Assembly: GCA_016932315.1 (NCBI GenBank)
Contig: JAFGDD010000018.1
Location: 115,969-179,968, forward strand
Source: Candidatus Woesearchaeota archaeon
Lineage (GTDB): Archaea; Nanobdellota; Nanobdellia; Woesearchaeales; SM23-78
Reading direction: 5' to 3'
DNA length: 64,000 nucleotides
Positions 14,451-63,157 of the stretch are shown piece by piece. The notes beneath the pieces are model-generated. The model saw only the letters and a list, made by a program, of their open reading frames with translations, was not told the origin of the DNA and did no database searches. The first letter of the stretch is position 1. The number at the start of each line of letters is the position of its first letter. A program made the translations under genes and the position numbers.

Positions 14451-14767
14451 TCTAACCCTCTATTGAACCCTTGTTTTCGTCGCTAAAAAATACCAAAACC
14501 ACGTATTATATCCATTAAAATATAATTATTAATATTTTTTAGTATAATATGTTTATAAATGTTTCTATTTGAGCAGTTATTATATCTAAAAAGGTATAAT
14601 AAAAGCGCATGAATGAAAAGAACGATCGGGGACCAACCGCCCTCCAAGAGCTCATAGATTTGCAAAGAATCACTTATCAGCAATTCAAAAAGCAAAACAA
14701 ACTAAAACCTAACACTCCCCCTATAACCTGCCTCAGCAACAGAATATATAAGGCTTTCTATTTTTGG

Positions 14768-14880
14768 AAAAAGTCACCTTGGACACCCCGCAGGGGGCGA
14801 CCCCCGTCCAAGCCACCTTGCACCTTAAAATTTTTAATAAAAAATTTTTGCGGTGCTGTGGCAGGTGGCGGTGGCTTTTT
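14768..14880 (+). repeat. Structured palindromic repeat, copy 1
   Basis: aaaaag-TCACC-TTGGAC-ACCCCGCAGGGGGCGACCCCC-GTCCAA-GCCACCTTGCACC-(AT loop)-GCGGTGCTGTGGCAGGTGGC-GGTGGC-ttttt. It is nearly the reverse complement of the copy at 39381-39494. Confidence 0.85.
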
Positions 14881-14975
14881 AACGGGTTTTGTGGCTCTTT
14901 TACAAGAAGATACTTTTTTATATGAGTTAAGCTTACCTTTGGCTTCAGATACTGGTTTTTGACACCATTATTTTT

Positions 14976-19968: not shown

Positions 19969-22035
19969 TCACATGAATATTTTTTCCAGCGGGTAAACCC
20001 TTATTCCTTTGCCTTTGACGAATTCGAAAGGAACTATTTTCTTGAGGTGGTCTACTGCTCTCATCTTAAGTATCTCAAGCGCGCTCTGCTTCAGGTTTCC
20101 TTTCTGCAGGTTGTAAAACACTATTACTCCGTCTGCAAGGAATTCCTCGACTAGCCCATGGCCTATGTTTTCTATACCCTGCACTTCTGTTATTAGGAAT
20201 GATGTTGCTCCTGTTCTCTCAAGTATGTCTATAAGCTGGGTTACGTATATCCTGTAGGCTGTGCTTGAGTCTGAGAATGCTGCTGATATTGCAGAGAGCG
20301 AGTCGATGACTACCCTGTCTGGCTTGAAGTTTGGCGGCAGTATGTTGAGTATTGAGTTTATGTCTATCATCAATTCTCCTCTTGCGTGCGCTAGCAATGC
20401 CTCTATCATCCTTGATATCTTGAACGGGTCCTGCCTTTGTATCATTAAGGTTCCTTCTTGCAGGTATTTTCTCGGGTCGAGCCCGTATGCTTCCATGTGC
20501 TCTATCAGGTTTTCTTCTGATTCCTCAAATGTCATGAACAGGCATTTTTCGCCGTGCTCTGCAGCCCAGCCAAGCATTTGTATTGCAAAGGTTGTTTTTC
20601 CGCTTCCCGGCCCTCCTGATAAGAGTATTGTTGAGCCTGTTGGTATGCCGTCGCTTATCATATCGTCAAACCCGTACACTCCTGTCTTGATTTTTTTCCT
20701 TTCCTTCTTCTCTGTTTTTACTTCTTCCTCGACTGCTATGAATTCGCTGCTGTAATCTATGAGGTTGAGCTTTTCCAGGGTTTCTTTCACTGACATTATG
20801 GCTAAATCTACTTCTTGCTCTGATTTGCCTTTCTGCGGCTGCTCTGGCTTGAATTGTTCAGTTTTTATGGTTGAGGTTTCTACGCTCGCTGTTGTGCTTG
20901 CTGTGCTTGGTGGTGCTGAAGGTTCTATTTGTATTTTCGAAATCTCTGCTCCTTGCTTTTCTTTTTCAGCTTGCTTCTCCTTGGTTTCTGTTGCCTGCGT
21001 TGTCAGCTGAATGACTGTTTCTGCTGTTGCTACTGGTGATGTTGGCAGAGGCGGGACAATTTTTCTGCCTAGCCTCTCTTCATTCAGCTCATTAATCCTT
21101 GCTTTGATTAGCATTATAGTCTCTTCCTTGTTCTTTACATGAGTTAGAGCTTCTGCTAGATCTGCATCATTGACAATATGGTATATCCATGCTGCGAAAT
21201 CATTCTTGTGCTCATTCACGTGGTGCGAAAACACATCTTGGCTGATTCGTTGAAGTTCTTTTTCAAGCTCAGTCAGGCTTCTTATTATGTGCCCGTTCTG
21301 CAGCACAAATGAATGCTTTTTGTCAACAGCCCTCAGTAAATCTGGTTGGTAAGAGGGAACCTCAGCCAAGGGTTCTTCTTCTTGCTCTTCCTTGGCTTTT
21401 CCTTCGCGCCCCTTCCTGTGCTTTGATTCAGCTTGTTTTCTTGTTTTTTCTTCTTTTTCTTTTCTTATTTTCTTTTCTATGTCTTGTTTTATTTTCTCTT
21501 CTAATTCTCTCTTTATTCTTTCTTCTGTTTCTTTTCTTGCTTTTTCTTCCTGCTCTGCCCTTATTTTCTCTTCCATATCATGCTTTGCTTTTTCCTCTAG
21601 TTCGCGCCTTGCTTTTTCTTCATATTCGCGCCGTATTCTTTCTTCTGTTTCTTTTCTTGCTTTTTCTTCCTGCTCTGCCCTGATTTTATCTTCTAACTCT
21701 TTTCTTGCTTTTTCTTCAAATTCAGCTGTCAGACTTGGACGAGGCGCAGATGATGTGGGTATTGGCGATGGTTTTTGGGGTGGCGTCGGTGCAGGCTGAG
21801 GCGTTTCTGGTTCGGTTAGCTCTTTGACTTTTGAACTTATGAAGCCTATCAGTTTTTGCCTTTCAATCAATGGTTTTATCTCGTTTGCTAGATCACCATC
21901 CTTGATGTTCTTCAAAATCCAGTCCGAATAATCGTTCTTGCCTGCGTTCGCCCTTGTGCTGAATACCGCATCATCTATTGAGGAAAGCATCTTAATGAGC
22001 ATGTTCAGGTATTTGGCTTTAGTTAAATTGTCCAT
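19969..22035 (-). CDS. KaiC/RadA-like (RecA-superfamily) ATPase with two N-terminal KNDFA-x-W modules and a K/E/R-rich repeat region
   Basis: The C-terminal ~240 aa contain GFDDMISDGIPTGSTILLSGGPGSGKTTFAIQ (Walker A, ~20590-20618) and RVVIDSLSAI (Walker B-like). The track start at 22092 reads into repeat copy 2. The ATG at 22035 (MDNLTKAKYL) is the more likely start. Confidence 0.8.
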   Translation of the reverse strand: MDNLTKAKYLNMLIKMLSSIDDAVFSTRANAGKNDYSDWILKNIKDGDLANEIKPLIERQKLIGFISSKVKELTEPETPQPAPTPPQKPSPIPTSSAPRPSLTAEFEEKARKELEDKIRAEQEEKARKETEERIRREYEEKARRELEEKAKHDMEEKIRAEQEEKARKETEERIKRELEEKIKQDIEKKIRKEKEEKTRKQAESKHRKGREGKAKEEQEEEPLAEVPSYQPDLLRAVDKKHSFVLQNGHIIRSLTELEKELQRISQDVFSHHVNEHKNDFAAWIYHIVNDADLAEALTHVKNKEETIMLIKARINELNEERLGRKIVPPLPTSPVATAETVIQLTTQATETKEKQAEKEKQGAEISKIQIEPSAPPSTASTTASVETSTIKTEQFKPEQPQKGKSEQEVDLAIMSVKETLEKLNLIDYSSEFIAVEEEVKTEKKERKKIKTGVYGFDDMISDGIPTGSTILLSGGPGSGKTTFAIQMLGWAAEHGEKCLFMTFEESEENLIEHMEAYGLDPRKYLQEGTLMIQRQDPFKISRMIEALLAHARGELMIDINSILNILPPNFKPDRVVIDSLSAISAAFSDSSTAYRIYVTQLIDILERTGATSFLITEVQGIENIGHGLVEEFLADGVIVFYNLQKGNLKQSALEILKMRAVDHLKKIVPFEFVKGKGIRVYPLEKIFM

Positions 22036-22048
22036 TTTGTTTGTGAGT

Positions 22049-22162
22049 AAAAAAATTGCCTCAGCCCTCAGCAAGCGCAACGTCATGAGCAAATGCGAAT
22101 GACTTGCACTGCGGCTGACGCGACAGGGGTTGCTCCCTACGGGATGTCGCGGGCAATTTTTT
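22049..22162 (-). repeat. Structured palindromic repeat, copy 2
   Basis: On the minus strand: aaaaaa-TTGCC-CGCGAC-ATCCCGTAGGGAGCAACCCC-TGTCGCG-TCAGCC...GGCTGA-GGCAA-tttttt. It lies 14 nt upstream of the KaiC-like start. Confidence 0.8.
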
Positions 22163-22371
22163 CGTTAGTTCGTTTCGTTTTTTCTCCTTTGTTTTTTTCT
22201 TTGCGGATTGAAAGCAGGCGATATTTTATTCTGAGGTTTATCTCTATCATTAATCTCCTTGCGTGGATTCTATAAACCTCTTTTTTCTTCCCACTCTCTC
22301 ACCTCTTTCTCCTTTTTGGGATTTGTTTTTTTTTGTGTTTGAATCTTTCCTTGCTTGTTATTTCGTGATTA

Positions 22372-24434: not shown

Positions 24435-26840
24435 ATGGGTGAGCAGTTTTACAGGTTCTTTGTGAAGGGAGTGGTGCAGGGCGTTGGCTTTAGGCCTTAT
24501 ATTTACAGGAAGGCTAAGGATTATGGCTTATTCGGCTCTGTTCGCAACATGGGCAACGGCGTGGAAATCATAACTAATGACAAGGAGTTCATGGATAAAC
24601 TATCTGACCTTCCTCCGCTTGCAAGGATTTCTGAATTTTCTGCAGAGAAATTAGGAGGCAAGCAAAAATATTCTGAATTTACCATTCTTGCAAGCACTTA
24701 TTCTGAGGGTGAGACAGAGCTTCCTGCTGACCTGTTCATGTGCAATGACTGCATTGCGGAGCTCAGGGACAAGAAGAACAGGAGGCATAATTATTATTTC
24801 ATCACCTGCACCAACTGCGGACCGCGGTTCTCTATGATTGATGATTATCCTTATGACAGGCCTTTTACTGCGATGAAGGAGTTCAGTATGTGTCCTGCCT
24901 GTAAAAAGGAATATGCAAATCCTGATGACAGGAGGTATCATGCCCAGACTATTGCCTGCAAGGACTGCGGCCCAAAATTGATGCTTAGGGAAAGAAGAAA
25001 TGGAACTAATGGGAATGATGGAAAGAATGGAAATAAAATTGCTGATATAGGATTTCTGCATGATATCGGTGGCAAGTCTGATGCAGAAACAATAAAAAAA
25101 GCCGTCGGGCTTATCAAAAAAGGAGAAATAGTGGCTATTAAGGGAGTCGGCGGCTTTCACATCTGTTCTGTCTGCTCACAAGAAGCAGTTGGCAAGGTTA
25201 GAGCTCTTCTTCACAGGCCTCACAAGCCTTTTGCAGTAATGGCAAGAGATATTGAAATGATTGAGAAATATGTTAATATCTCTGCTGAGGAAAAAAAGCT
25301 GCTCCTTTCGCCTGCAAGACCTATTGTTGTGTTGAGGAAAAAAGAAAAAAAAGCCAGTGAAAGATTTGGTTCAGTGTCTGAACTGAACTCTGTCGGCGTC
25401 ATGCTTCCTTACACTGCGCTGCACTACTTATTGTTTGACTTTATTAACGAGCCTTTGCTGATGACGTCTTATAATGTTCCTGGAGAACCTGTCTTGTTGA
25501 GCGAGCATGGTGAAGTAGATGCAAAATATTATTTGACGCATGAAAGAGAGATAATCAATCGCTGCGATGACTCTGTAATCAAGGTAATTAATGGCAAGGC
25601 TTTCTTCCTCAGGCGCTCGCGAGGATTTACTCCGTTATCAATCCTGATGTTAAGCCCCTTTAATAATTGCGAAAAGCCACCTTGGGCATCCCGAATGGAG
25701 CAACCCCTGCCCAAGCAACCGCTTTGCAAATCACTCGCTAATGCTCGTGATGTTGCAAATGTTGCAGGTTGCGGCGGCTTTTCTAATGTGCATGAAACTA
25801 TACTTGCTCTTGGCGCTGAGATGTCTAATGCGGTTTGCACAGCCAAGAACAATAAATGCTTTTTGTCGCAGTATATAGGAACTACTTCAAAGCTCAAGAC
25901 TTTTTACTTCATGAAACAAGCAACAGATAATCTTATCAGGCTGACGCGAGCTAAGCCTGCAATTATTGCCTGCGACTTGCACCCAGGATATAATTCTACA
26001 GCCTTTGCAAAGGAGCTTGCAGATAAGCATAATGCAAAGCTTGTTCAGTTCCAGCACCACAAGGCTCATGTAGCCAGCGTTGCAGCAGAGCACGGGCTTA
26101 AGAATTATGTAGGCATTGCAATGGACGGATTAGGCTATGGCGAGGACGGCAATATCTGGGGAGGGGAAGTATTTGACGTAAGAAACGGAAACGAATTTGT
26201 TCGCATAGGAAGCTTGGAAGAACAGCCCCAGCTCGGAGGGGACTCCGCAACTATCTACCCCAAGAAGATGCTTTTCGGCATCCTCTCAAAGTTCCTGCCT
26301 GAGAAAGAGCTAATTGCAATGAAATTATTTGATGATAAGGAAGCAAAGCTTTACCTAAAGCAGCTCAGGGAAGGATTCAATGTTCTGCTCACGACAAGCG
26401 CGGGCAGGGTTCTTGACGCGGCAGCTGCCCTTTTAGGATTGTGCGACCATAGGACTTATGACGGAAGGCCTGCAATGATCCTTGAGAGCTTTGCAGACGG
26501 CGCAGAGCCGTTTGATATTAAGCTAATCCTTGAAAAAAAGGATGGCAGGCTGATATTGATGACAACGCCAATGTTCAAATTCTTAATTGATAATCTTGGC
26601 AAAGACAAGACTAGACTGGCTGCCACGGCTCAGACTTATGTTGCAAATGGAATGCTTGAGATTGCCAAGTCCGTGATGAAAAAAAGGAAAAAGCCAATTG
26701 TTTTCTCTGGCGGTGTTGCCTATAACTCAATGATATCAGGCATCATGATTAAAGAGGGAGTTCTTGTTAACAAAAACATACCTTCTGGCGACGGAGGAAT
26801 ATGCTTTGGCCAGGCTTACCTTGCGAGACTTTCAGGATAG
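24435..26840 (+). CDS. hypF: Hydrogenase maturation carbamoyltransferase HypF, carrying an in-frame repeat insertion
   Basis: 801 aa. It has an acylphosphatase-like N-terminus (VKGVVQGVGFRPYIY), two CxxC-x18-CxxC zinc-finger pairs (CNDCIAEL..CTNCGPRF and CPACKKEY..CKDCGPKL), a YrdC-like segment (IVAIKGVGGFHI) and a Kae1-like C-terminus. Confidence 0.9.
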   Translation: MGEQFYRFFVKGVVQGVGFRPYIYRKAKDYGLFGSVRNMGNGVEIITNDKEFMDKLSDLPPLARISEFSAEKLGGKQKYSEFTILASTYSEGETELPADLFMCNDCIAELRDKKNRRHNYYFITCTNCGPRFSMIDDYPYDRPFTAMKEFSMCPACKKEYANPDDRRYHAQTIACKDCGPKLMLRERRNGTNGNDGKNGNKIADIGFLHDIGGKSDAETIKKAVGLIKKGEIVAIKGVGGFHICSVCSQEAVGKVRALLHRPHKPFAVMARDIEMIEKYVNISAEEKKLLLSPARPIVVLRKKEKKASERFGSVSELNSVGVMLPYTALHYLLFDFINEPLLMTSYNVPGEPVLLSEHGEVDAKYYLTHEREIINRCDDSVIKVINGKAFFLRRSRGFTPLSILMLSPFNNCEKPPWASRMEQPLPKQPLCKSLANARDVANVAGCGGFSNVHETILALGAEMSNAVCTAKNNKCFLSQYIGTTSKLKTFYFMKQATDNLIRLTRAKPAIIACDLHPGYNSTAFAKELADKHNAKLVQFQHHKAHVASVAAEHGLKNYVGIAMDGLGYGEDGNIWGGEVFDVRNGNEFVRIGSLEEQPQLGGDSATIYPKKMLFGILSKFLPEKELIAMKLFDDKEAKLYLKQLREGFNVLLTTSAGRVLDAAAALLGLCDHRTYDGRPAMILESFADGAEPFDIKLILEKKDGRLILMTTPMFKFLIDNLGKDKTRLAATAQTYVANGMLEIAKSVMKKRKKPIVFSGGVAYNSMISGIMIKEGVLVNKNIPSGDGGICFGQAYLARLSG
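25672..25792 (+). repeat. Structured palindromic repeat, copy 3 (inside the hypF coding sequence, in frame)
   Basis: gaaaag-CCACC-TTGGGCA-TCCCGAATGGAGCAACCCC-TGCCCAA-GCAACC...GGTTGC-GGCGGC-ttttc. It translates as ..CEKPPWASRMEQPLPKQPLCKSLANARDVANVAGCGGFS.. Confidence 0.8.
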
Positions 26841-26858
26841 ATGACGCCCGGCTTATTT

Positions 26859-27260
26859 TCAGCCGGTAAGCACTAATTTTCCGTGCAATACTCCCTGCGA
26901 TGATAAGATCTCGTCAGCAAGCCCGGTTATGTTTTTGACTTTTCCCTCGAGAACGAGCACTTCCATGCACTTGCTCTCATTCATGTGAACGTGCAGTGTG
27001 CTGCGGATTAATCCGGGATGATGATGCTGGATATGGGTTAAGTTGTGCTGCACATTGTGTTCGTGATGGTCATAAACCAGAGTCAATGTTCCCATCATCG
27101 CGCTTTCAGGATTTTCTCTTTTCTCATCAACCAATGATTTCCTTATAAGGTCGCGTATTGCATCAGACCTGTTCTTGTAGCCTTTCTTTGTGCTCGCAGC
27201 ATCAAATTCTTTTAACTGTTTTTTGTCAAAAGCAATACCCTTTCTTATAATGTTCTCCAT
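26859..27260 (-). CDS. nikR: Nickel-responsive regulator NikR (RHH plus a His-rich metal-binding domain)
   Basis: 133 aa. It has an N-terminal ribbon-helix-helix (IAFDKKQLKEFDAASTKKGYKNRSDAIRDLIR) and His-rich segments HHEHNVQHNLTHIQHHH. It lies among the hyp genes. Confidence 0.85.
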   Translation of the reverse strand: MENIIRKGIAFDKKQLKEFDAASTKKGYKNRSDAIRDLIRKSLVDEKRENPESAMMGTLTLVYDHHEHNVQHNLTHIQHHHPGLIRSTLHVHMNESKCMEVLVLEGKVKNITGLADEILSSQGVLHGKLVLTG

Positions 27261-27333
27261 GCGTCCACCTCTTTTTTCGATTTTCTTTCAACCTTTCTTT
27301 CAATATTGTGACACAAGCAGAGTATAAAAGTGT

Positions 27334-27353
27334 TACGATTTATAAAAATCGTA
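27334..27353. promoter_or_regulatory. Perfect 8-4-8 inverted repeat in the nikR divergent intergenic region (candidate operator)
   Basis: TACGATTT-ATAA-AAATCGTA lies between nikR (minus strand) and the plus-strand membrane-protein genes. AT-rich TATA-like boxes sit next to it (agtataaaag, gtttatatac). Confidence 0.45.
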
Positions 27354-27430
27354 GCAAAGTTTATATACTGTTGGTGCGCTTAGCATCATGACAGCAAATT
27401 TGTGAAGATTAAAAAAGAGGGTGAGGCAAA

Positions 27431-27769
27431 ATGGCATGTTTTTTAGCACCAGCATCTGTTGCCATAATAACGACAGTTTTTAGAAAGAAATTCTCTAAGG
27501 CATGGCATATTAATTGGTTGAATACCATGATATGGGGCGGAACAATAGGATTGGCGGTTGAACACATAGCTCATCAGGAAATAGTGCCGTGGTTTCCATT
27601 CTTATCAGCGATGAGCAACCATGCTGACACCATGGTCATGCTTAAAGAGATAGCATCAGTGGGCATACCAATGACTTTGGCTTTGGTTTTTGTGTGGGCA
27701 GTAATGGTGGTTGTCTACGAAAAAGCCATAACATCTAGCAGATCACCTATAAAAAACGCATTGCAGTAA
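27431..27769 (+). CDS. Small membrane protein (His-containing loop EHIAHQE)
   Basis: 112 aa with ~3 hydrophobic segments. A good SD-like sequence, gagggtgagg, lies upstream. Confidence 0.55.
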   Translation: MACFLAPASVAIITTVFRKKFSKAWHINWLNTMIWGGTIGLAVEHIAHQEIVPWFPFLSAMSNHADTMVMLKEIASVGIPMTLALVFVWAVMVVVYEKAITSSRSPIKNALQ

Positions 27770-27785
27770 AATAAGGAAAAGAGGT

Positions 27786-28112
27786 GTGAAAATGTGGATG
27801 ATTATAACACTAATTGCGGCTATTGCCACTTCAACTATTTATTTCTTATTTAAAGATTATAGGAGGAAGCTCAAATTAGGCTTGCTGGCCTTGATGATGC
27901 TTGGAACTTTTTTAATGGTTCTTGTGGACCATGTTATTGCATTAATCGAAGGCGAGCCATTAATAGAACTGACGACTGATGGTCTGATAAGTAATGGAGC
28001 CCTGCTTGGAATCTCTATGGTACTGCCTATCTTCCTGATTTGGGCAATTGCTGTTCTGATTTATTGTAGAAAAGAAAAAAGTCACATTCAGAAAATAAGC
28101 AATACTAGCTAA
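27786..28112 (+). CDS. Small membrane protein
   Basis: 108 aa with 3 hydrophobic segments. The likely ATG is at 27792 (MWMIITL). Confidence 0.55.
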   Translation: MKMWMIITLIAAIATSTIYFLFKDYRRKLKLGLLALMMLGTFLMVLVDHVIALIEGEPLIELTTDGLISNGALLGISMVLPIFLIWAIAVLIYCRKEKSHIQKISNTS

Positions 28113-28158
28113 AGCAGTCTAATAGCAACTCCTGAATTTTTTTGGTTGGTGATAACTT

Positions 28159-28440
28159 ATGAACTATGAAAGTCTGATAAAACCGCCGATGAGCCAGACC
28201 CTGAAATCAGGCAGGGTAGTTCTTCAGCCAGGCGAAGAAATTGGAGAGCACACGACCAGCAGCAAGGAAGAGCTTATTATCGTTCTGAACGGAGAATTGC
28301 TCCTTAGGAAAGGACGTGAAGAAATTGTTTTGAAGAAAGGAAACTCCCATTACATTCCTCCGGAAGTAATTCATAACGTCATTAATAAATCTGGCGCGGA
28401 GTCAGAATACATCTATGTAGTATGCCTCTTAAAGGATTAA
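28159..28440 (+). CDS. Cupin-domain small protein
   Basis: 93 aa. GEEIGEHTTSSKEELIIVLNGEL...GNSHYIPPEVIHNVIN fits the two-motif cupin pattern. Confidence 0.6.
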   Translation: MNYESLIKPPMSQTLKSGRVVLQPGEEIGEHTTSSKEELIIVLNGELLLRKGREEIVLKKGNSHYIPPEVIHNVINKSGAESEYIYVVCLLKD

Positions 28441-28491
28441 AATAATGGACTAATAGAAAAATATTGGTCGACATTAATGGCCAACTTGCTA

Positions 28492-28836
28492 TTATCCTTT
28501 TATCTCCTTTATTATTACCTTGTCGCCTTGCAGAATCTTTACATTGGTAGATTGGCACTTAGGGCAGATTATGAGCGGAGACGGCTCAATTTTGCTTTTC
28601 TTCTTGCAGTCATTGCACAGAATCTTTCCCGGTATCTCAATAATCTCAAGCTTAGCATTCTTTAACAAGCCAATCTCTTTCTTGTGAGCCTCGAAATACA
28701 TCATTATAGGCTCTTTCTTGTAAGTCGTCAGCATTCCCAGTTCCACAACAATCTTCTTTGGGTTGGTTATGTTCTCGTCTTCACAGGCGTGCAATATCTG
28801 ATGCACAACCTCGTCAGTTATTCCATGCTCATGCAT
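28492..28836 (-). CDS. hypA: Hydrogenase nickel-insertion protein HypA
   Basis: 114 aa. It has the MHE N-terminus and a CxxC-x12-CxxC zinc site (CNDCKKK...CPKCQS). Confidence 0.85.
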   Translation of the reverse strand: MHEHGITDEVVHQILHACEDENITNPKKIVVELGMLTTYKKEPIMMYFEAHKKEIGLLKNAKLEIIEIPGKILCNDCKKKSKIEPSPLIICPKCQSTNVKILQGDKVIIKEIKG

Positions 28837-28863
28837 TATTTGTCACCTCGATTTCTTATTCGG

Positions 28864-29005
28864 AAAAAGTTGCCGCAGCCCGCAGCTGCACCGCCGACAT
28901 TTATGTCAAGGTGCTGGCTGCTGTGGGTGGGGTCGCGCCCTCGGGCTGTTGCTAGAGCACTAGCAACTCCAAAAGTTTACTTTTGGCTCCCACTGGCAAC
29001 TTTTT
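28864..29005 (-). repeat. Structured palindromic repeat, copy 4 (with extra nested hairpins)
   Basis: It fills almost the whole hypE-hypA spacer. Ends: aaaaagTTGCC ... GGCAActtttt. H2 outer stem: GCAGCC..GGCTGC. Core: AGCCCGAGGGCGCGACCCC. Confidence 0.75.
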
Positions 29006-30009
29006 CAGCATATCCTCGGCACTATCCTGCCTGTTGGCATCGCCAGGATTCTCTTGCCCAGCATTGTCTGGAGGACTACGTGATTATCCTTTGCATCATC
29101 AACTATCTCTCCAATAATAGAAGCGTCTGGGTTGAATTCTTTCAATAGCTTAACGACTTTTGAAGCACTGTTTTTGTCAGCAACGCATATCATCCTGCCC
29201 TCGCAGGCGAGTTCATAGAGATTAATGCCCAACATCTCAACAACTTTTCTTACTTCCTGCTTTGCAGGGATTTCTTCTTCTGAAACCAGCATCCCTACTT
29301 TGTTCTTTGAGCATATTTCGTTAAGTATTGATGCAATCCCTCCTCTGGTCGGGTCCTTAGCTATCTTTATCAGGCGCTTGACAGCATCCATCTCTTTGAT
29401 TAAAGGCTTGGAATCAGTTATTATCTTTGTTTCATATTCAAATCTTTTTGATAGCAGCGCAACGGCATGCTCGCCAATCCCGCCGGAAATTATTACCTTG
29501 TCGCCAGGAATTATTTTTTTCGTCAACAAATCCTTCTCATCAACGATTCCTAATCCTGACGTGTTGATTATTATCTTGTCCAGCTTTCCATTTTCCATGA
29601 CCTTGGTGTCGCCGGTAACCACAGAAACATCATATTCTTCTGACAGCTTCTTTATAGAAGTGATTATTTTGTCAAGGTCTTCTTTTGAAAACCCTTCTTC
29701 AATCACAAATCCGAGGGAAATGCCCAATGGTTTGGCACCCATGACTACTAAATCGTTTATTGTGCCTGAGAATGCAAGATGCCCTATGTCTCCGCCGGGG
29801 AAGAATATGGGGTTAACAATGAAAGAGTCGGTTGTGAAAACCAGCTTGCCGGGTTTGCCCTTGCCCTTAACCGCGTCCAAATCCAGGACTGCAGAGTCAT
29901 TGTCGCATTCCTTCCAGTTTCCTCTCTTGCAGAACCCAAAGCTCTTTATCAATTCCTGCATTTCCTTCCCGCCAGAGCCTTCTGCCAGTGTTATGAAATC
30001 CTTTTGCAT
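29005..30009 (-). CDS. hypE: Hydrogenase maturation protein HypE
   Basis: The C-terminus is ...PRIC and the body is AIR-synthase-like. The track start at 30150 reads through repeat copy 5. The ATG at 30009 (MQKDFITLAEGSGGKEM) gives the expected ~334 aa. Confidence 0.9.
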   Translation of the reverse strand: MQKDFITLAEGSGGKEMQELIKSFGFCKRGNWKECDNDSAVLDLDAVKGKGKPGKLVFTTDSFIVNPIFFPGGDIGHLAFSGTINDLVVMGAKPLGISLGFVIEEGFSKEDLDKIITSIKKLSEEYDVSVVTGDTKVMENGKLDKIIINTSGLGIVDEKDLLTKKIIPGDKVIISGGIGEHAVALLSKRFEYETKIITDSKPLIKEMDAVKRLIKIAKDPTRGGIASILNEICSKNKVGMLVSEEEIPAKQEVRKVVEMLGINLYELACEGRMICVADKNSASKVVKLLKEFNPDASIIGEIVDDAKDNHVVLQTMLGKRILAMPTGRIVPRIC

Positions 30010-30039
30010 TTTAATCACGAATTTTTTTTGAGCACCTTC

Positions 30040-30163
30040 GAAATGCTTGATTGTTTTAATCGAGGATGCTGCCTCCAATAAAACTTGTTTTATTGGATCA
30101 GCAAGCTTTGCTTGCTTGCTCCCCGGATGGGGCGTCCCCCGGCAACGCATTTGCTTATTTTTT
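30040..30163. repeat. Structured palindromic repeat, copy 5 (rearranged or degenerate)
   Basis: Closing arms are aaatgc..gcattt. The core hairpin TTGC-TCCCCGGATGGGGCGTCCCCCG-GCAA lies at 30116-30145, next to a T-tract. An extra hairpin, ccaataaaacttgttttattgg, is present. The core orientation relative to the flanks differs from the other copies. Confidence 0.45.
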
Positions 30164-30214
30164 CTAAGGCATTTCGACCTTAGGGTGCTCTTTTTTTTAT
30201 ATTACAATTATTTT

Positions 30215-31255
30215 TTATCTCCCGTACTTGTAGCTTATTGAGCAGCTTCCTTCCTCTGAAACCATGCATGCGCCTTTTGGATTTTCTGGAGTGCAGGCTT
30301 TCCTGTAGAGCGGGCATTCTGTCGGCTCAATCAGTCCTTTGAGCACTTCTCCGCACCTGCAGGCTGTTTTCTTTGGCTCAGGAACCTTGCTTAATATATT
30401 CTTGTATTTAATCTTGGCGTTTAAATCATCTTTTCTTACTTCAAGCCCAGAGTTGGGTATTACTCCGAGCCCTCTCCACTCGCTGTCGCTAATCTTGAAG
30501 TGATTGTTAAGCAATTTCTGCGCAATAATATTGCCTTCATAATGCACAGCTTCAGGGTAAGCATTAACAACGCTTTTCTTGTCGTCCTTGATGAGCTCGA
30601 GCAATGCCCTTATCCCGCGAAGGATTCTTTCTGCGCTAAAGCCGGTTATGGCTTGGGCTACTTTGATGTCAGCATAAGCTTTTTCTCCTATAATCGTGGA
30701 TACGTGACCTGGATTGATGAAGCCGTCAATCTTTATTTCTCCTCCTAGCATTGCTTTAATAGCAGGCACTACTAGTTTGTGGACTGAATAAACGCAGATG
30801 TTGTTCTCCAGCAGGAAAGTAGTCATTGGTGCTGTTGTTTCAAAGCCTATGCCGAAAAAAACAATGTGAGGATAATCTTTTCTCAGTTTTAATACTTCTT
30901 CTGCAGAATAAACCTCGAAGACCTTGCAGCCCTTGGCTCTTGCATCCTCTAATGAGTAATTGCTTCCAGGCACCCTCATCATGTCGCCGTACGTAGCTAC
31001 AGGCACTCCTTGCATCGCCAATTCTATCATGCAGTCAATGTCTTTTTGCGAGCTCACGCACACAGGGCAGCCAGGACCTGATATCAGCCTGATGTTCTTC
31101 GGCAGTATCTCCCTGATGCCATACTTCATTATTATGTTAGTATGCCCGCCGCATATTTCCATCAGTGTGGCTTCTCGCTTGATGCTTCGAGCTATTTTGT
31201 TAATATCATTCAGGTGTTGCTTTGTCAGCTCTTCATCATTCATTTTCTTAATCAT
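30215..31255 (-). CDS. hypD: Hydrogenase maturation protein HypD
   Basis: 346 aa with CGGHT, GPGCPVCV and a C-terminal Cys cluster (CRCGEVLKG..CPLYRKACTPENPKGACMVSEEGSC). Confidence 0.9.
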   Translation of the reverse strand: MIKKMNDEELTKQHLNDINKIARSIKREATLMEICGGHTNIIMKYGIREILPKNIRLISGPGCPVCVSSQKDIDCMIELAMQGVPVATYGDMMRVPGSNYSLEDARAKGCKVFEVYSAEEVLKLRKDYPHIVFFGIGFETTAPMTTFLLENNICVYSVHKLVVPAIKAMLGGEIKIDGFINPGHVSTIIGEKAYADIKVAQAITGFSAERILRGIRALLELIKDDKKSVVNAYPEAVHYEGNIIAQKLLNNHFKISDSEWRGLGVIPNSGLEVRKDDLNAKIKYKNILSKVPEPKKTACRCGEVLKGLIEPTECPLYRKACTPENPKGACMVSEEGSCSISYKYGR

Positions 31256-31310
31256 CCATCCTATAATTTATTTATTCATCATTTATTTATCCATACATCA
31301 TTTTTCTTCA

Positions 31311-31541
31311 TCATTCACTTGATTGTATTCTCTTAATCTCATTCCTGATTATTTCCAGGTTTTCTTCTGCAGCCTTCTTGTCAAGCTTCTCGATTGCAAA
31401 GCCAGTATGAATCAGAACAAAGTCCCCCTTCTTAGGATTATCAACTAATGAAACATTCACTTTTTTGAGGACCCCGCCATAATCCACTTCTGCAGAGTCG
31501 CCTTCAATGCTTATTATTCTGGCAGGTATTGCATAGCACAT
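31311..31541 (-). CDS. hypC: Hydrogenase maturation chaperone HypC
   Basis: 76 aa, starting MCYAIPARII (the essential Cys2). Confidence 0.85.
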   Translation of the reverse strand: MCYAIPARIISIEGDSAEVDYGGVLKKVNVSLVDNPKKGDFVLIHTGFAIEKLDKKAAEENLEIIRNEIKRIQSSE

Positions 31542-31644: not shown

Positions 31645-34600
31645 TTATTGCTTTTTTTCTTTTGCTAAAAACAATATTTTTTCCAGAACTTTTCTCTTGA
31701 TTTCAGGAAGCATCTTCTCAAGCCCAGCCACGCTCATGTTAAGCTTTCTCATGTCATTGATGATGATCTCAGAGTCTACTATACAGGATAGCACTTCTGA
31801 TTCTTCCACCTCTGATATTATTAAAAACATCTCTGACTGTTGTGAATAGTTATTTGCTGTCGAGTTCTGGCTGTACTTTGTTTTGCCAGAGAAAAGAAGT
31901 GTTAAAGAGTGCGTGCTGTATCCCATGTATAGCGGGGCATTGAATGTTACCTCAAATGCAGATGACTCGTTTGGCTCGAGGCTTAGTATCATTTCAGGTT
32001 GTACGCTATAGCGACTTACAGGAAACCCGATGATGCTTAAGCTCAGATTAGCGATTATTATACTGTTGTTGTTGGTAATGTTTATGATAATCGTTTTATT
32101 GCTTCCGCGGAGAATCTCAGTCCTGTTGGTGAAAATAAATGATAATGAATACTCTTTAGGCAGCAGCATTCCGCCTCCGCTACCTCCTCTTCCTCCTCCG
32201 CCACCTCCTCCGCCAGAGCTTGGTTGGGTCTCTTCCTCTTCTTCTTCCTCCTCTCCAGTGTCAAGTTCGCTTACAGTCACTGTTTTTGTGATAGTCTTTT
32301 GCATGGCTTCACCATCTGATTTGAAGTAGTTCACGGTTATTGTAACATTAAGCTCTCCTGTCGTCGCATTAAGAGGAACAGATGCGCTCAGCCCGTAGCT
32401 TTCTGTCTGGAAGCTTGTCTGGTAGGGAGTAATATTTCCGACGTATTTGCTTAAGTTGCTGCTTGTTGTCCAATCCTCTGGCATGGACCAGTTAATGGTG
32501 GCATTAACGGCGGTTTCATTCCCGATGTTCTTAATAGTAGTGTTCAGCAATACTGACCTGTCACCCTGAGTCACTGAAGGATCATAAGTTACCTCATAGA
32601 ATGTGATGAATGGCCCCCCTTCACCTACTGCTATTGAGCCATTAATGGTGGCGTTGTTTGTTTCGCATTCACCTGTCAGGCATTCGATGAATAATGAGAA
32701 TGCATAAGGTGTCGGGTTTTGTTCCGGGGCGCTTGTAGATATGTTAATGATGGCGTTTTCCTTGCTGTTGATTGTCAGGCTGGTCTGGTTTATCCCTACT
32801 GTGGGGATTCCTGAAACTTTGGAGATGCTGAATTGCAGGGCATAGTCACCTGTGTTGTTGATGGTTATGTTGCCGATATTCACTGTGCTTCCTTCTGTTG
32901 TGAACACCTCATCAAATTGAGTGGGAGAGGACTCCCAAGTTCGGTCATAATAAACAGAAGTGTTGGTTTCAGCAGATGCATTCGAGTTATTGTATACGTC
33001 AATGCTATATATGCGGTATGTCCATACGCCCTCAGATGTTGGCGTGAAGCTTCCATTGTACATTGATGATGCGTTGGCCATGCTTGCGTTGAGCCACTCA
33101 GATAAGCTGGTGAGCCTGTACTGCAGGATGCTGCTGGTTATTGCTGAGTAATCTGTTATGTTGGTGCTTACATTAATTGTCACATTAGGGTCAAGATCTC
33201 CTGAAATATTAGGGGTCTGCATGGTATTGTTGATTAATGGAGGAGTCGTATCCTGCACTGTGAAGTTAAAATAGGATGTGAAGTTAAAGTTTCCTGCGCT
33301 GTCATTGAACAAAAACCTGTAAACATAAGTTCCGACGCCTGATACGCTCCATCGGTACTGATATGTTCCGCTGCCCAAGCTGTCAGTTGATTGGTTGGTG
33401 TAATTGGCTTCGATGGTCACTGTGCCGATGGAGCTGGTTGCATCATTCAAATATATGCTTACAAACTGGTAGCTTGTGCTGAGCTCAAAAGGGTCAGAGG
33501 TTTCTGTTGGAGTGCTCCAGTTCGGCGGAGTGGTGTCTACTGCAAAACTTGAGACGGTACATTCTGTTACCCCTATGGAATCTATTTCGCATAAGTCAAT
33601 TGAATTAGTCCCTTCAGATGCATTTATTGTGATATTATATTTGTACCTGTCATGAACAACGAATAGCATGTCCATGCTTGTATTGGAGAGCAATTCTCCT
33701 GAAGAATAATTGTTGAGATTAGCTTCCCATTGATAATAGTTGGTGCTGTCTCCAGATGCATTTAGGAACAGCCAGTATTTGGTCCCATTTGTGAATGTGA
33801 CTGTGGTGTTGAATGTTATGTTAACCCAGTAAAATTCATCCTGGCTTACCATTGATGAGTTGAGGGTGGTATTAAGAAGTATGGTATCTGATGGTGCTCC
33901 AGAACTGTCAGTTCTTACCTGAACGTATGTCAAGTATGAGTTCGCGCTGCTTTTTTTCAGCTTGAGCTTGATAAGGTTTACAGTGAGATTTTCAGCAGGC
34001 GTGAATGACTGTGAAATATTGGTAAGGTTGTTGGTGGTGTACATTTCAGTGCTTTCGCTCTTGTTATTCTGCGCTGAGACTCCATAGAAGAGATGAGTTG
34101 CTTCGCCTGAGTTCAGTGAGAAGTAAACATCCTGGTATGGCGTGTTGTTATCATTCACACGAAAAGCAAGAGCTATGTCAGAATGATTGTATGTTTGTGA
34201 CAGCACAGGAGAAGTTATGTTTATCCCGTAATTATTGACAATGAAGAAGTGAGTGTAATTATACCCTGTGTTGTTGATGGTGTCATTTGATGTTATGCTG
34301 ACATTGTACCTTGTGGTATTGGTGAGGCCGCTGATATTGCCCACGTACAAGTCTCCGCTTGAATGATTGAGCTGGATGGATGTTGCCCCGCCTGCCCAGG
34401 TGACGTTGACTATGATCTTATCAATCCCTGTTGCATCACTGGCTGTTACATTGATAGGTATCACTACGCCTGCGCTATATTCAAAGCTCTGGCCTGCGCT
34501 TGGAGAGATTGCTGTGACGCTTGGTGCTGAAAGGTCTGGCCTTGCCATGACGTAGAAAACTATATCATCAGTATCAGAATCAGAGCTGTCTTGGCCGCAG

Positions 34601-35115
34601 GTCATGCTGCTGGTCCCAGGATAGGCAATGATAAACCTTAATGCGTGCCCTCCTTCGTTGTCATCCAGCGTATAGTTGTAATAGACATCATAATAATTGT
34701 ATACCGGGCATGTGCCTGAGTAAATATTCTCCCAGACAGTATCATTCCCATTAGAATAATTGGAGTATGCAATCGCGTAAATGTCGCCTGGATAACAATA
34801 GAATTGGCTGTATATGTTAATGGTGTCCCCTCCCTTGAAGTTGGTGCCGTTGAGATCGGTGACGATCATTTTCTCGACCCATTCGTACCAGTCATAATCG
34901 CTCTGCCCGATCCCATCTTCGCACTCATCAAGAGTATTATAGCCGGGGGGATATTCCCAGCTGCCCTGGCAGTTAGGGTCGCACGCGCAAATATAGTTAG
35001 GTGTTGCGCAGGTGCTTCCTGCATCAGCTGATAATAGCCCAGGGGCTAGCAAAAGCAGAGTGAGCAAGGCCATGCAGATAATCCAAAAATTATTTTTTCT
35101 TCTCAAGTTAATCAA
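31645..35115 (-). CDS. Large secreted surface protein (Cys-rich N-domain, Ig-like/CARDB-like beta-sandwich repeats, E/G linker)
   Basis: 1156 aa. Signal peptide FWIICMALLTLLLLAPGLLSADA. N-x-S/T sequons are dense. The linker is EEEEEEETQPSSGGGGGGGGRGGSGGG. No C-terminal TM segment. Confidence 0.75.
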   Translation of the reverse strand: MINLRRKNNFWIICMALLTLLLLAPGLLSADAGSTCATPNYICACDPNCQGSWEYPPGYNTLDECEDGIGQSDYDWYEWVEKMIVTDLNGTNFKGGDTINIYSQFYCYPGDIYAIAYSNYSNGNDTVWENIYSGTCPVYNYYDVYYNYTLDDNEGGHALRFIIAYPGTSSMTCGQDSSDSDTDDIVFYVMARPDLSAPSVTAISPSAGQSFEYSAGVVIPINVTASDATGIDKIIVNVTWAGGATSIQLNHSSGDLYVGNISGLTNTTRYNVSITSNDTINNTGYNYTHFFIVNNYGINITSPVLSQTYNHSDIALAFRVNDNNTPYQDVYFSLNSGEATHLFYGVSAQNNKSESTEMYTTNNLTNISQSFTPAENLTVNLIKLKLKKSSANSYLTYVQVRTDSSGAPSDTILLNTTLNSSMVSQDEFYWVNITFNTTVTFTNGTKYWLFLNASGDSTNYYQWEANLNNYSSGELLSNTSMDMLFVVHDRYKYNITINASEGTNSIDLCEIDSIGVTECTVSSFAVDTTPPNWSTPTETSDPFELSTSYQFVSIYLNDATSSIGTVTIEANYTNQSTDSLGSGTYQYRWSVSGVGTYVYRFLFNDSAGNFNFTSYFNFTVQDTTPPLINNTMQTPNISGDLDPNVTINVSTNITDYSAITSSILQYRLTSLSEWLNASMANASSMYNGSFTPTSEGVWTYRIYSIDVYNNSNASAETNTSVYYDRTWESSPTQFDEVFTTEGSTVNIGNITINNTGDYALQFSISKVSGIPTVGINQTSLTINSKENAIINISTSAPEQNPTPYAFSLFIECLTGECETNNATINGSIAVGEGGPFITFYEVTYDPSVTQGDRSVLLNTTIKNIGNETAVNATINWSMPEDWTTSSNLSKYVGNITPYQTSFQTESYGLSASVPLNATTGELNVTITVNYFKSDGEAMQKTITKTVTVSELDTGEEEEEEEETQPSSGGGGGGGGRGGSGGGMLLPKEYSLSFIFTNRTEILRGSNKTIIINITNNNSIIIANLSLSIIGFPVSRYSVQPEMILSLEPNESSAFEVTFNAPLYMGYSTHSLTLLFSGKTKYSQNSTANNYSQQSEMFLIISEVEESEVLSCIVDSEIIINDMRKLNMSVAGLEKMLPEIKRKVLEKILFLAKEKKQ

Positions 35116-39380: not shown

Positions 39381-39494
39381 AAAAAAATTGCCGCCACCTG
39401 CCACAGCACCGCAAAAATTTTTATTAAAAATTTTAAGGTGCTTGGTGGCTTGCTCGGGGGTTGCCCCGCCCGGGGTGAGCAAGGCGATTTTTTT
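39381..39494 (-). repeat. Structured palindromic repeat, copy 6
   Basis: On the minus strand: aaaaaaa-TCGCC-TTGCTCA-CCCCGGGCGGGGCAACCCCC-GAGCAA-GCCACCAAGCACC-(AT loop)-GCGGTGCTGTGGCAGGTGGC-GGCAA-ttttttt. It lies 19 nt upstream of the ATPase start. Confidence 0.85.
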
Positions 39495-42500: not shown

Positions 42501-42648
42501 TATTTTCTTCCTGGTTGGTGCAAGCATTGTTTTCAGGATTTACAAGGCTAACAGCTGCCGAGGCGCAGTGTATGCTGATGAGCAGTATGAGTGCTATAAG
42601 CATCACGAAGAACTTACTCATTTCAATCTTGTTGTTGTCCTTACTCAT
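39553..42648 (-). CDS. Type-I membrane surface protein (Ig-like, PKD-like and CarboxypepD_reg-like domains; C-terminal TM; ~165-aa helical cytoplasmic tail)
   Basis: 1031 aa. Signal peptide FFVMLIALILLISIHCASA. A PKD-like segment is NYTWQLSNGTRTNASKVNITYSASGNYTNTVFVEDAYNN. Another segment reads IRVKDSKTNSPIAGATVEVEED..DANGEV. TM segment: IIFLPVIIILLGSMVFAGM. Confidence 0.75.
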   Translation of the reverse strand: MSKDNNKIEMSKFFVMLIALILLISIHCASAAVSLVNPENNACTNQEENTFEYYISIEELTECKLIMDSDTALTNDTITNATNPGFNEFVLGGIEPGEHTWSITCDSANGSESSEERTITYDRVEPTIVLFNPQNNIVFETSSVELSFVALDNLAEIMNCSVITNSEVNQFVLATNSQPLTVTIDQLSDGNYTWKVACVDYANNIKESETRSFTVLSEPPLPDFRVFLDSAEYATGQSGQMSISAPAGTSVRVEVCPNQTGFVECKVPINAQNITEFPLIELVPYTNYAGKYILEAFFNYSGITQTQEIGYKVNNNINIDIATNINQRRNVPVQLKATATGGVGDLNYTWQLSNGTRTNASKVNITYSASGNYTNTVFVEDAYNNTMNKSVTVYVENTAYITIRVKDSKTNSPIAGATVEVEEDQETTDANGEVNYYLEEGRRDILVLRENYSVYNSELNITSDETITILLNPITASKPIITLLLPENNSPVIGPEEELVYKVEYDKNVNCSIYINENNDGFFIYLGSDELSSSSEQRFGVIQLENKSYWWKVECIDKEGNSAMSSTWKFNVGAPLQLATTAEETNSDYKVYNDWIKEFEQVYESFSNLPKEEKEAADALGIQAMVDEGIQTFKNTIRDIDSLRFRSDLTDSDKQEEGEKYVAAADQTYQKTPVSIQLLGSDAFVDYIKKEELQSLLEQYLEIKGQKEEVNLKDALTYLDELQQEIVISTKVKTARVMYRDGTQSDSSIIIREIKAYNITSDAFIIELIPKDVAGSAEEIMSQQKFEVIKQDPIIKFDLKGDSSSITQISYYFNTNIDSELLKNIRTAVFIEPNTIKENSKITGFSVKNLKLPKIKGIIFLPVIIILLGSMVFAGMRYDGVTHAKHAYYRLQGRKSLHYINVVLSEIHENLSVGDLNKACELYSEAKGAYAELPNMAKNDVYEKVAEAASKISDYYQSVQSQSIINELTSRINHIQQLISYAQLMPALEEYKSIEQTYNQFSDAEKELLHPALVEIGNKIQIMIDNTKNLI

Positions 42649-44895: not shown

Positions 44896-44929
44896 TTTTT
44901 TAATTCATTATTTCTTATCGGATGCGTTC

Positions 44930-45093
44930 AAAAAGTCGCCACAGCCTACAGCAAGTGCAACGTCATGAATGTTAATGAATGACTTGCACGTCGGCTGTTT
45001 GGACTGGGGTTGCAAGCAAAAATCCTTTTGGGATTTTTGATGTGCCAAAACAAAGTTTTGCCACGCCCTACGGGCTGTCCAAGGCGGCTTTTT
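44930..45093 (-). repeat. Structured palindromic repeat, copy 7 (with a ~50-nt nested insertion in the core)
   Basis: On the minus strand: aaaaag-CCGCC-TTGGAC-AGCCCGTAGGGCGT[insert]CAACCCC-AGTCCAA-ACAGCC..GGCTGT-GGCGAC-ttttt. Its H2 is very similar to that of copy 2. Confidence 0.75.
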
Positions 45094-45157
45094 GGAAGAT
45101 TTTAAACACAACATTTTTTATCAATAGATTTATAATCTCTTTTATTTTCCCTGTATT

Positions 45158-62988: not shown

Positions 62989-63043
62989 TTTTAGAAGGTT
63001 AAAACTAAATGGTTTATATAGTTTTGGGTTGAAAGAAAAAGTC

Positions 63044-63145: not shown

Positions 63146-63157
63146 ATTTTTTAATAA

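Follow-up and report, generated by a model that had tools for sequence, protein, structure and literature searches.

The window analysed here is a 64-kb stretch of DNA from a Woesearchaeota archaeon, and its plus strand carries an open reading frame for an 801-amino-acid hydrogenase-maturation protein, HypF, with no internal stop codon (positions 24435-26840). The product consists of an acylphosphatase domain, two HypF zinc fingers, a YrdC-like domain and the N and C subdomains of a Kae1-like domain. All five HypF Pfam families are matched (E values of 1e-17 to 8e-56), and the HypF entries of the PDB match the protein at 1e-153. The approximately 200 columns that are invariant across 72 HypFs are kept, among them the zinc-finger cysteines, Q540-H541-H545, D564-G565, S758-GGV-N764 and G785-D-G787, so that the domains and motifs by which a HypF carbamoyltransferase is recognised are all present. 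The genes hypC, hypD, hypE, hypA and nikR lie near hypF and are intact, in a gene order that is not shared with loci L145-L148. As the initial annotation had stated, the frame stays open through a copy of a palindromic repeat, and the peptide that it quoted occurs exactly in the 801-residue translation.

The linker between the YrdC-like and Kae1-like domains

The linker from the RG[YF]xP motif to the xxGAE motif is 13 residues long in 119 of the 119 nearest homologues (111 by motif match, the remaining 8 read by eye), versus 57 residues in the window HypF. The excess had been said to coincide with the repeat, and it does so more sharply than was claimed: of the 44 extra residues about 40 come from the repeat, and the remaining 3-4 can be put down to ordinary variation of the linker. 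The extra segment is also missing from the solved HypF structures 4g9i, 3vth and 3tsp. A linker of similar length in orthologues from repeat-free genomes had been named as the observation that would count against an insertion; HypF in related genomes whose loci are free of the repeat (51.6 kb searched) has the 13-residue linker. Identity to the nearest HypF is 61% by BLASTP and 67% in a MAFFT alignment. A 20-residue low-complexity stretch at residues 187-206 forms a second expansion in the window HypF.

Compared with the homologues, the insertion occupies positions 25671-25790 of the plus strand (120 nt, 40 codons, residues 413-452, EKPPWASRMEQPLPKQPLCKSLANARDVANVAGCGGFSNV), although the alternative register 25668-25787 fits a 120-nt insertion equally well. 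Its G+C content is 52.5%, while the remainder of the gene has 43.9%, and the segment 25642-25836 has no DNA homology to the hypF genes of relatives, with an excess of 132 nt. Deleting 25671-25790 joins SPFNNC to HETILALGAE, which fits the homologue consensus PIxCx[D/E]TIAVGAE; the rejoined peptide expected if the 40 residues were absent from the protein is LSPFNNCHETILALGAEM. Two copies of the tetranucleotide TAAT, read from the sequence at 25664-25667 and 25784-25787 of the plus strand, stand exactly 120 nt apart and may represent a target-site duplication, but they are short and could be a chance occurrence. At 33 other copies of the repeat, whose borders are blurred by A/T-rich ends, no duplication can be made out consistently.

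Since assemblers can be misled by repeats, a repeat copy could have been wrongly joined into hypF. Such an artefact is extremely improbable, given that the same 801-residue gene is found on a separately assembled Logan contig (run SRR13394437), that the junctions are in frame and that hypF is colinear with its homologues on both sides of the insert. An intein was also considered and rejected. Inteins have at least about 130 residues, an N-terminal Cys, Ser or Thr and a C-terminal His-Asn followed by Cys, Ser or Thr, whereas the insert has only 40 residues, starts with Glu-Lys and ends with Asn-Val, the next residue being His.

A Y-shaped repeat and its family

The insert corresponds to a full-length, Y-shaped repeat of type A at 25670-25784 on the minus strand, antisense to hypF, which was detected by the covariance models R1 (123.9 bits) and R2 (114.7 bits, E value of 5.5e-27). 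It is the top match in the window of R2, a model built solely from 23 copies in other metagenomes. The initial annotation had placed the repeat at 25672-25792, which is right on the 5' side and approximately 2-8 nt too long on the 3' side. A repeat search independently pairs 25687-25785 with 22048-22146 (99 nt, 71% complementary), and the 21-nt core motif occurs six times in the window versus 0.01 expected.

The hypF copy forms 38 Watson-Crick pairs and one G-U pair among the 39 modelled pairs, and its RNA fold has an energy of -55.6 kcal/mol (z -6.4). One strand of the closing stem P1 lies at 25671-25681 (GAAAAGCCACC) and pairs with 25773-25783 (GGCGGCTTTTC) in a continuous 11-bp helix with one mismatch and no 3-nt bulges, whose T and A runs are limited to 4 nt. 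Hairpin P3 follows at 25682-25714 and bears the conserved core, which reads GGGGTTGCTCCATTCGGGATG on the minus strand at 25687-25707, and the long hairpin P2, supported by fold and covariation, occupies 25715-25772 (coordinates on the plus strand). The intact stems suggest that the insertion in hypF is recent. No other sampled copy exceeds 70% identity to the one in hypF, so the subfamily from which that copy came appears not to be among the samples.

The family as a whole, represented by seven copies in the window and a further 26 in metagenome loci, is defined by a three-way junction made up of an 11-bp closing stem with terminal A/T runs and the two hairpins P2 and P3. A typical copy measures about 105-120 nt, and all copies, variants included, fall between 104 and 166 nt. 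The P3 core GGGGYYGC-YCC-NNN-CGGGRTG is invariant, with covariation of Y88 and R98 in all copies, and pairing in the closing stem AAAAAGYCRCC/GGYGRCTTTTT amounts to 98.9% over 32 copies, with covariation at 9 of its 11 pairs. Overall, 92.5% of the cells are paired, versus about 40% in slid controls, and 33 of the 39 modelled pairs have changed on both sides. Within one genome the copies are 31-83% identical, and compensatory changes keep the structure. Counts of G-U versus A-C (26 versus 14) differ too little to assign a strand of action.

The copies are multiple, strongly folded and G+C-rich relative to the genome, and usually occupy short intergenic spacers that follow a stop codon and precede a promoter or ribosome-binding site, the stem being followed by T runs; the hypF copy is the only intragenic one among 35 copies examined. 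Both models find the intergenic copies at 14767-14881 (minus strand), at 22049-22163 (plus strand), just upstream of and antisense to the start of a KaiC-like gene, at 39381-39494 (plus strand) and at 63043-63146 (plus strand), between the stop codon of a helicase gene and the promoter of CDC48. They also find a variant copy at 28863-29006 (plus strand), between hypE and hypA, which has extra small hairpins in P3. A second variant at 44929-45094 (plus strand), found by R2, lies downstream of the adenylate kinase gene and has a nested insertion in P3. No consistent open reading frame runs across the copies of the family; the hypF copy is open in three of the six frames, and the mean over 35 copies is 1.9 of 6. 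A spurious 117-residue frame (14609-14962) is nevertheless called across the first copy, and the family is more generally a source of annotation artefacts, as public protein sets hold reading frames called across intergenic copies.

When the 21-nt core pattern was searched against 185,579 genomes, most of the matches listed were chance matches in high-G+C bacteria. Among the matches listed, 20 low-G+C loci were kept, of which 19 are archaeal; two (L101 and L014) carry type A copies. The hosts are DPANN and other archaeal MAGs, some of them labelled Methanosarcinales. The invariant hairpin module is shared with a second family, which is found in many DPANN MAGs, some again carrying the label Methanosarcinales. 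The viral contigs searched hold no copies of the repeat. Rfam gave no match in the window at gathering thresholds and nothing relevant in E-value mode on three element regions, and tRNA and tmRNA genes are absent from the window. We found the family described neither in Rfam nor in the literature searched.

Fate of the insert

We consider it probable that a single insertion, which preserved the reading frame, is translated as a tolerated, disordered loop between two domains. A small, non-coding, structured mobile repeat would have entered the short linker between the YrdC-like and Kae1-like domains, and the element would be read through as 40 extra residues (413-452), which would form a disordered loop on the surface, flanked by two domains that fold independently of each other. 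The gene stays open because 120 nt is a multiple of three and the landing frame is free of stop codons, and selection may have kept only a copy that preserves the reading frame and has short T runs. We infer that the loop is both translated and tolerated and that HypF remains functional with it. A strongly folded RNA within a reading frame (about -50 kcal/mol) could impede translation, which is a point against this explanation.

An AlphaFold (AF2) model of the window HypF reaches a pTM of 0.83, and its pLDDT falls below 50 only at residues 132-145, 191-206, 397-399 and 409-452, the last of which coincides with the repeat-derived loop. The model superimposes on the solved HypFs with TM scores of 0.83/0.88 (3vth_A) and 0.82/0.86 (4g9i_B). 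Modelling, a check that the initial annotation had proposed, thus shows the insert as a low-confidence loop and the HypF fold as kept; most likely, the fold is retained in the protein and the 40 extra residues form a disordered loop.

The initial annotation had offered three options, namely a translated loop, removal at the RNA level and decay of the gene. The first is the best supported, by the intact domains, the retained fold, the low-confidence loop at 409-452 and the intact hyp genes. The last would make hypF a young pseudogene, inactivated or crippled by the insertion, with the frame left open by the luck of a stop-free insert whose length is a multiple of three. An open frame alone is no proof of function, since approximately one in six random insertions of the hypF copy would leave the gene open; the undamaged stems point to a recent event that left little time for visible decay, and the low-complexity expansion at 187-206 shows some laxity in linkers. 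However, the 2.4 kb of hypF show no lesion apart from the insert and no sign of decay, the domains score strongly with the roughly 200 invariant columns kept, and the insertion site is an inter-domain linker whose length varies among solved HypFs. Together with the fold retained in the AF2 model and the intact remainder of the hyp cluster, these observations make decay unlikely.

Removal at the RNA level, by the bulge-helix-bulge splicing endonuclease or another activity, would yield a protein without the 40 residues. A few archaeal mRNAs, such as that of cbf5 in Crenarchaeota, are indeed spliced at bulge-helix-bulge motifs, in which two 3-nt bulges separated by a 4-bp helix mark the exon-intron borders. 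As in those introns, a short intervening sequence lies here in an archaeal reading frame, its ends are brought together by a compact fold, and its excision would preserve the frame. Unlike them, the insert is itself open in frame, which makes removal unnecessary, and its closing stem lacks 3-nt bulges. A scan for helix, 3-nt bulge, 4-bp helix, 3-nt bulge and helix gave a count near chance (27 versus 15 in shuffles) and no match positioned at the insert borders. A length of 115 nt also falls below that of group I and group II introns, and Rfam gave no match. Excision from the transcript is therefore very unlikely.

Ribosomes could also bypass the element between matching AAT codons, much as in gene 60 of phage T4; translational bypassing is known there and in the mitochondrial 'byp' elements of Magnusiomyces, and is not known to occur in archaea. 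Identical AAT codons do stand 120 nt apart within the TAAT copies and flank a strong hairpin. No stop codon follows the putative take-off codon, however, and bypassing would be unnecessary because the insert is open in frame; we regard it as vanishingly improbable. A more general proposal, that the Y-shaped element is a new archaeal intervening sequence whose juxtaposed ends are excised from mRNA or bypassed by ribosomes, is likewise very improbable; if it were true, the element could colonise coding sequence at no cost, and the hypF copy would be the first visible case.

The initial annotation had likened the behaviour of the repeat to that of Rickettsia palindromic elements (RPEs), and further in-frame cases were sought by peptide searches. 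A word-index search with an alignment of six element translations returned nothing. An exhaustive profile search of 1.84 billion representatives gave six matches, of which four are short reading frames called over intergenic copies; the other two are repeat proteins with no relation to the family. The peptide searches thus revealed no further in-frame insertion, which is a weak negative, given the shortness of the query and a clustering at 50% identity that conceals members with an insert. The comparison holds for the in-frame insertion, but a recurrent habit is not borne out, with 1 of 35 copies intragenic and no further case in the peptide searches, and the hypF case looks like an isolated accident.

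Mobility and comparison with known systems

Two of the intergenic sites are empty in syntenic relatives with 74-83% nucleotide identity: the helicase-CDC48 junction (copy at 63043) in L151, and the adenylate kinase junction (copy at 44929). These relatives, which were located via GatD and whose 10-kb flanks end short of hypF, hold no copy of the repeat in 64 kb. Because the repeat is absent from them at two orthologous intergenic sites, the family is or was mobile. Like miniature inverted-repeat elements (MITEs), it is small, non-coding and multi-copy, with terminal inverted repeats and both filled and empty sites. Conservation of the structure and of a short single-stranded core, in spite of a variable sequence, suggests an enzyme that recognises structure and uses folded single strands as its substrate, in the manner of REP/RAYT, IS200/IS605 ends or attC sites.

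The 31 reading frames of the window contain no transposase domain, and neither the window nor the loci that hold the repeat encode a homologue of IS200-type TnpA. Several candidates were tried and rejected. An IS200-type TnpA gene beside hypF in the relative L145 is frameshifted, and the hairpins that flank it are unrelated to the repeat. The gene of about 380 codons at 29005-30150, flanked by element-like hairpins and entertained as TnpB/IS605, is hypE. Integron attC sites do not fit either, as the ends lack the R-box AAC/GTT and the neighbours are housekeeping genes and not cassettes.

The family is thus a candidate mobile element recognised by its structure, or a candidate intergenic RNA with a function, in a branch of the archaea that has received little study. 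Proteins can gain new loops when a palindromic mobile repeat is captured in frame. Such captures are familiar from bacteria, with good documentation for Rickettsia and a few other groups, and have seldom been described in archaea; we found no report of it from DPANN archaea in the literature searched.

Among known systems, REP/RAYT comprises palindromes of 20-40 nt, headed by a conserved GTAG or CGTC, together with a REP-flanked gene for RAYT, a Y1 transposase, whereas the present repeats are three-way junctions of 104-166 nt and the window encodes no Y1 transposase. The Sulfolobus SM elements and the Haloquadratum or PATE-type MITEs are deletion derivatives of known insertion sequences, with similar copies and clear target duplications. 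The present family resembles them in being small and non-autonomous, with terminal inverted repeats and presence or absence between relatives, but its copies are only 31-83% identical and yet keep their structure, no parent insertion sequence was found and the duplication is uncertain. With REP/BIME, ERIC, Correia, BOX and RUP it shares multiple, strongly folded copies that are G+C-rich relative to the genome and lie in short intergenic spacers. It differs from these bacterial repeats in its three-way junction with an invariant single-stranded core, in its archaeal MAG hosts and in that no RAYT or parent insertion sequence was found in the window or in the loci holding the repeat. In-frame intragenic copies of ERIC and BOX have occasionally been reported (PMC10969869).

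The RPEs are often intragenic, with 44 insertions in genes of R. conorii (PMC10969869), against 1 of 35 copies here, and RPE copies encode a conserved peptide, whereas the present repeat shows no recurrent in-frame use in the peptide searches. The host is not a member of the Rickettsiales but an archaeon, by its GatD/GatE of the Nanoarchaeota/Woesearchaeota type, and the likeness is one of behaviour only. In that behaviour, the hypF copy matches the RPEs: both are non-coding palindromes of about 100-150 nt that lie in frame in a conserved housekeeping protein, at a position compatible with its fold, and are read, or in hypF would be read, as extra residues (PMC10969869).

A repeat copy within an otherwise intact hypF gene

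The hypF ORF (24435..26840, + strand, 801 codons) stays open through the repeat and encodes exactly the peptide quoted in the initial annotation, which had placed a palindromic repeat in frame at 25672-25792. The copy is real, and these coordinates are right within a few bases, as three lines of evidence agree. An inverted-repeat search pairs 25687-25785 with 22048-22146; the 21-nt core GGGGYYGCYCCNNNCGGGRTG, for which 0.01 occurrences are expected, is present six times in the window; and the covariance model of the repeat, built only from 23 copies of other metagenomes, retrieves seven copies in the window, the best match being the hypF copy at 25670-25784 (-), which is full length and scores 114.7 bits (E 5.5e-27). 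In this copy every one of the 39 modelled pairs is preserved (38 Watson-Crick and one G-U, the best of any copy), which suggests that the insertion was recent; its identity to any other sampled copy, however, is at most 70%. The copy ends in A and T runs of just four nucleotides, while 28 of 32 copies carry at least five Ts at the 3' end; short T runs would, we infer, avoid oligo-T termination inside the gene.

The unusually long linker ahead of the Kae1-like start was also borne out. Among the 119 nearest HypF homologues, drawn from a collection of 5.8 billion proteins, the spacing from RG[YF]xP to xxGAE is 13 residues without exception (111 by motif match, the other eight by eye), compared with 57 in the window HypF. 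In the alignment to T. kodakarensis HypF (4g9i), query residues 407 and 457 fall on chain residues 396 and 401, and in that to 3vth query residues 405 and 452 fall on 394 and 398. If 25671-25790 (120 nt, 40 codons, aa 413-452) is deleted, ...TPLSILMLSPFNNC is joined directly to HETILALGAE, and the resulting C-H-E-T-I agrees with the homologue consensus P-I-x-C-x-[D/E]-T-I-A-V-G-A-E. The tetranucleotide TAAT stands both at 25664-25667 and at 25784-25787, a distance of exactly 120 nt, which makes 25668-25787 an equivalent register and leaves room for a possible short target duplication. At the DNA level, hypF of relatives aligns with 25062-25642 and 25836-26753 and with nothing between. The G+C content is 52.5% in the insert and 43.9% in the remainder of hypF. 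An assembly artefact is unlikely, since a separately assembled Logan contig has the identical gene.

All five HypF families of Pfam are present in order: Acylphosphatase (residues 6-84), zf-HYPF (two stretches, best 152-184), Sua5/YciO/YrdC (226-395), HypF_C (453-552) and HypF_C_2 (560-793), with residues 396-452 forming a gap without a Pfam domain. In a comparison of 72 HypFs, about 200 invariant columns are kept, among them all eight cysteines of the zinc fingers and the metal and nucleotide motifs of the Kae1-like part. The nearby hypC (31311-31541), hypD, hypE, hypA and nikR are intact, and hypF, judged from its sequence, shows no sign of decay. The AlphaFold2 model (72-sequence alignment, pTM 0.83) matches full-length 3vth_A (TM 0.83/0.88) and 4g9i_B (0.82/0.86); confidence drops below 50 only at 132-145, 191-206, 397-399 and 409-452. 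The fold is thus predicted to be retained on both sides of the insert. Inactivation of hypF by the insertion is improbable; nothing in the sequence points that way.

A second extra segment, unrelated to the repeat, lies in the zinc-finger-to-YrdC linker (aa 187-206, 24993-25052, NGTNGNDGKNGNKIADIGFL). It is built of AATGGA-like short tandem repeats, is Asn/Gly-rich (191-206), has pLDDT below 50 and is missing from all aligned homologues. Elsewhere in the window, the KaiC-family ATPase gene (19969-22035) contains a 24-nt tandem repeat of at least 10 units at 21392-21751 (-), T/C-rich on the + strand and coding for an 8-residue repeat towards the N terminus. One very large ORF with many repeats of ~300 nt (~100 aa) occupies 1-12900 (-) and runs past the left edge, and further large PKD/Ig-like surface proteins are encoded at 31645-35073 and 39553-42648.

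Architecture of the repeat family

The element, of type A, is 104-122 nt long and reaches 166 nt where it has taken up nested insertions. Its closing stem of 11 bp (AAAAAGYCRCC/GGYGRCTTTTT) encloses a long hairpin, P2, and a hairpin with an invariant core, P3. In P3 the short inner helix YCC/GGR shows perfect covariation, and the 5' GGGGYYGC either stays unpaired or pairs in an alternative way. In a 32-copy alignment, which was fitted to the model and so favours the structure, the standard pairs account for 92.5% of cells against 38-48% with slid partners, and 33 of 39 pairs have both-sided changes (225 cells); none of 500 shuffles reached any observed measure. An unfitted MAFFT alignment of six copies still gives compensatory changes in 24 of 40 pairs. 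Mutual identity of the copies in the window is only 31-83%; conservation extends to the structure and a short core but not to the sequence.

The P2 5' strand of all type A copies (e.g. 25751-25762, +) starts with a near-tandem hexamer (GCAACC-T-GCAAC, GCCACC-T-GCCAC, TCAGCC-C-TCAGC or GTAACC-GTCACC). The 3' strand carries one hexamer complement, so two pairing registers are possible, a feature that is conserved. The copies at 28863-29006 and 44929-45094 have extra small A/T-rich hairpins nested in P3 (e.g. AAAAATCCTTTTGGGATTTTT, CAAAACAAAGTTTTG); the elements themselves thus appear to be targets of smaller insertions.

Empty sites, orientation and distribution

The nearest GatD homologues are 76-80% identical, and their contigs are syntenic with the window at 43.7-64 kb (genes 74-83% identical in nucleotides). 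No family copy was found in 64 kb of three such relatives. The junctions holding the copies at 63043-63146 (in the interval from the helicase stop codon to the TATA box of CDC48) and 44929-45094 (after adenylate kinase) are short and empty there; with hypF this makes three filled-versus-empty contrasts. The terminal 8 nt of the former copy (GACTTTTTGACTTTTT, gene-sense orientation) are directly duplicated at 63147-63154, and it is preceded at 63035-63042 by a near-duplicate of the A-run end (AAAAAAT AAAAAGTC); these duplicates may be the footprint of the insertion mechanism. None of the 31 window ORFs has a transposase domain, and no element-bearing locus has an IS200-type TnpA homologue. Directly downstream of its hypF, one relative has a Y1 transposase gene of the IS200 type that is frameshifted (L145:12426-12898); the hairpins flanking this gene proved unrelated to the family. 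By a crude ORF call, a gene start on the opposite strand adjoins the 5' end in 24 of 31 copies, so most copies are antisense to their neighbours, as is the hypF copy. G-U outnumbers A-C by only 26 to 14 in the copies, a weak sign as to which strand acts.

Besides the seven copies in the window, 26 occur in JGI metagenome loci (several on 262-654 kb contigs of one sample) and one each in MAGs labelled Euryarchaeota archaeon SM23-78 and Methanosarcinales. The P3 core is shared by a second architecture, type B, in which it is placed first: A-run, ...ATGGCGC, P3, TAGG-hairpin-CCGT, GCCGCCAT..., T-run (e.g. locus L020:5470-5590, -; also L118, L074, L050, L107, L044, L097, L026, L018 and L089). Type B is hosted by many Woesearchaeota/Nanoarchaeota MAGs and some labelled Methanosarcinales, often as adjacent inverted pairs like BIME clusters. 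Neither type matches Rfam, and no description of the family was found in the literature searched.

Between hypD and hypE (30085-30150, -) there is a hairpin resembling P3 (GGGGACGCCCCATCCGGGGAG), with two small hairpins after it. The longest hypE ORF call (start 30150) crosses it; since the AIRS domain of this long call is reached only at residue 85, hypE probably starts near 30007 instead. Of the eight element-like structures of the window, three lie in the 7-kb hyp cluster (24435-31541): the copy in hypF, the one separating hypE from hypA, and the hypD-hypE hairpin. This concentration may be chance. The repeat also gives rise to annotation artefacts: a 117-aa ORF (14609-14962, +) is called over an intergenic copy, its sequence is found again in public protein collections (P0121), and these collections contain comparable short ORFs of other genomes (P0123-P0125).

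Probable read-through of the insert and likeness to known elements

Read-through would be the simplest outcome, since the insert is open in frame and lies between two domains. Three of six frames are stop-free in the hypF copy (mean 1.9 over 35 copies); as one length in three is also a multiple of three, the ORF would survive roughly one insertion in six, so a single tolerated survivor is unremarkable. Excision of the element from the transcript is very improbable: the closing stem has no bulges, a bulge-helix-bulge scan gave 27 loose matches against 15 in shuffles with none at the borders, and a self-splicing intron would have to be much larger than the element. An intein was likewise rejected. 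Translational bypass, which would be unnecessary with no stop codon after the putative take-off codon, has a negligible chance of being correct. Altogether, the observation is confirmed, and the preferred interpretation of the initial annotation, a translated and tolerated loop, is supported by the open frame, the inter-domain site, the intact gene and the retained fold.

Host gene and event are ordinary in mechanism; more interest attaches to the repeat family. Only the hypF copy, of 35 examined, lies inside a long ORF, and searches with the element translation, of limited sensitivity, found no real proteins carrying it. The likeness to RPE is therefore that of a single event, not a family habit; in-frame intragenic copies of MITE, ERIC, BOX and RPE have already been described in bacteria (PMC10969869).
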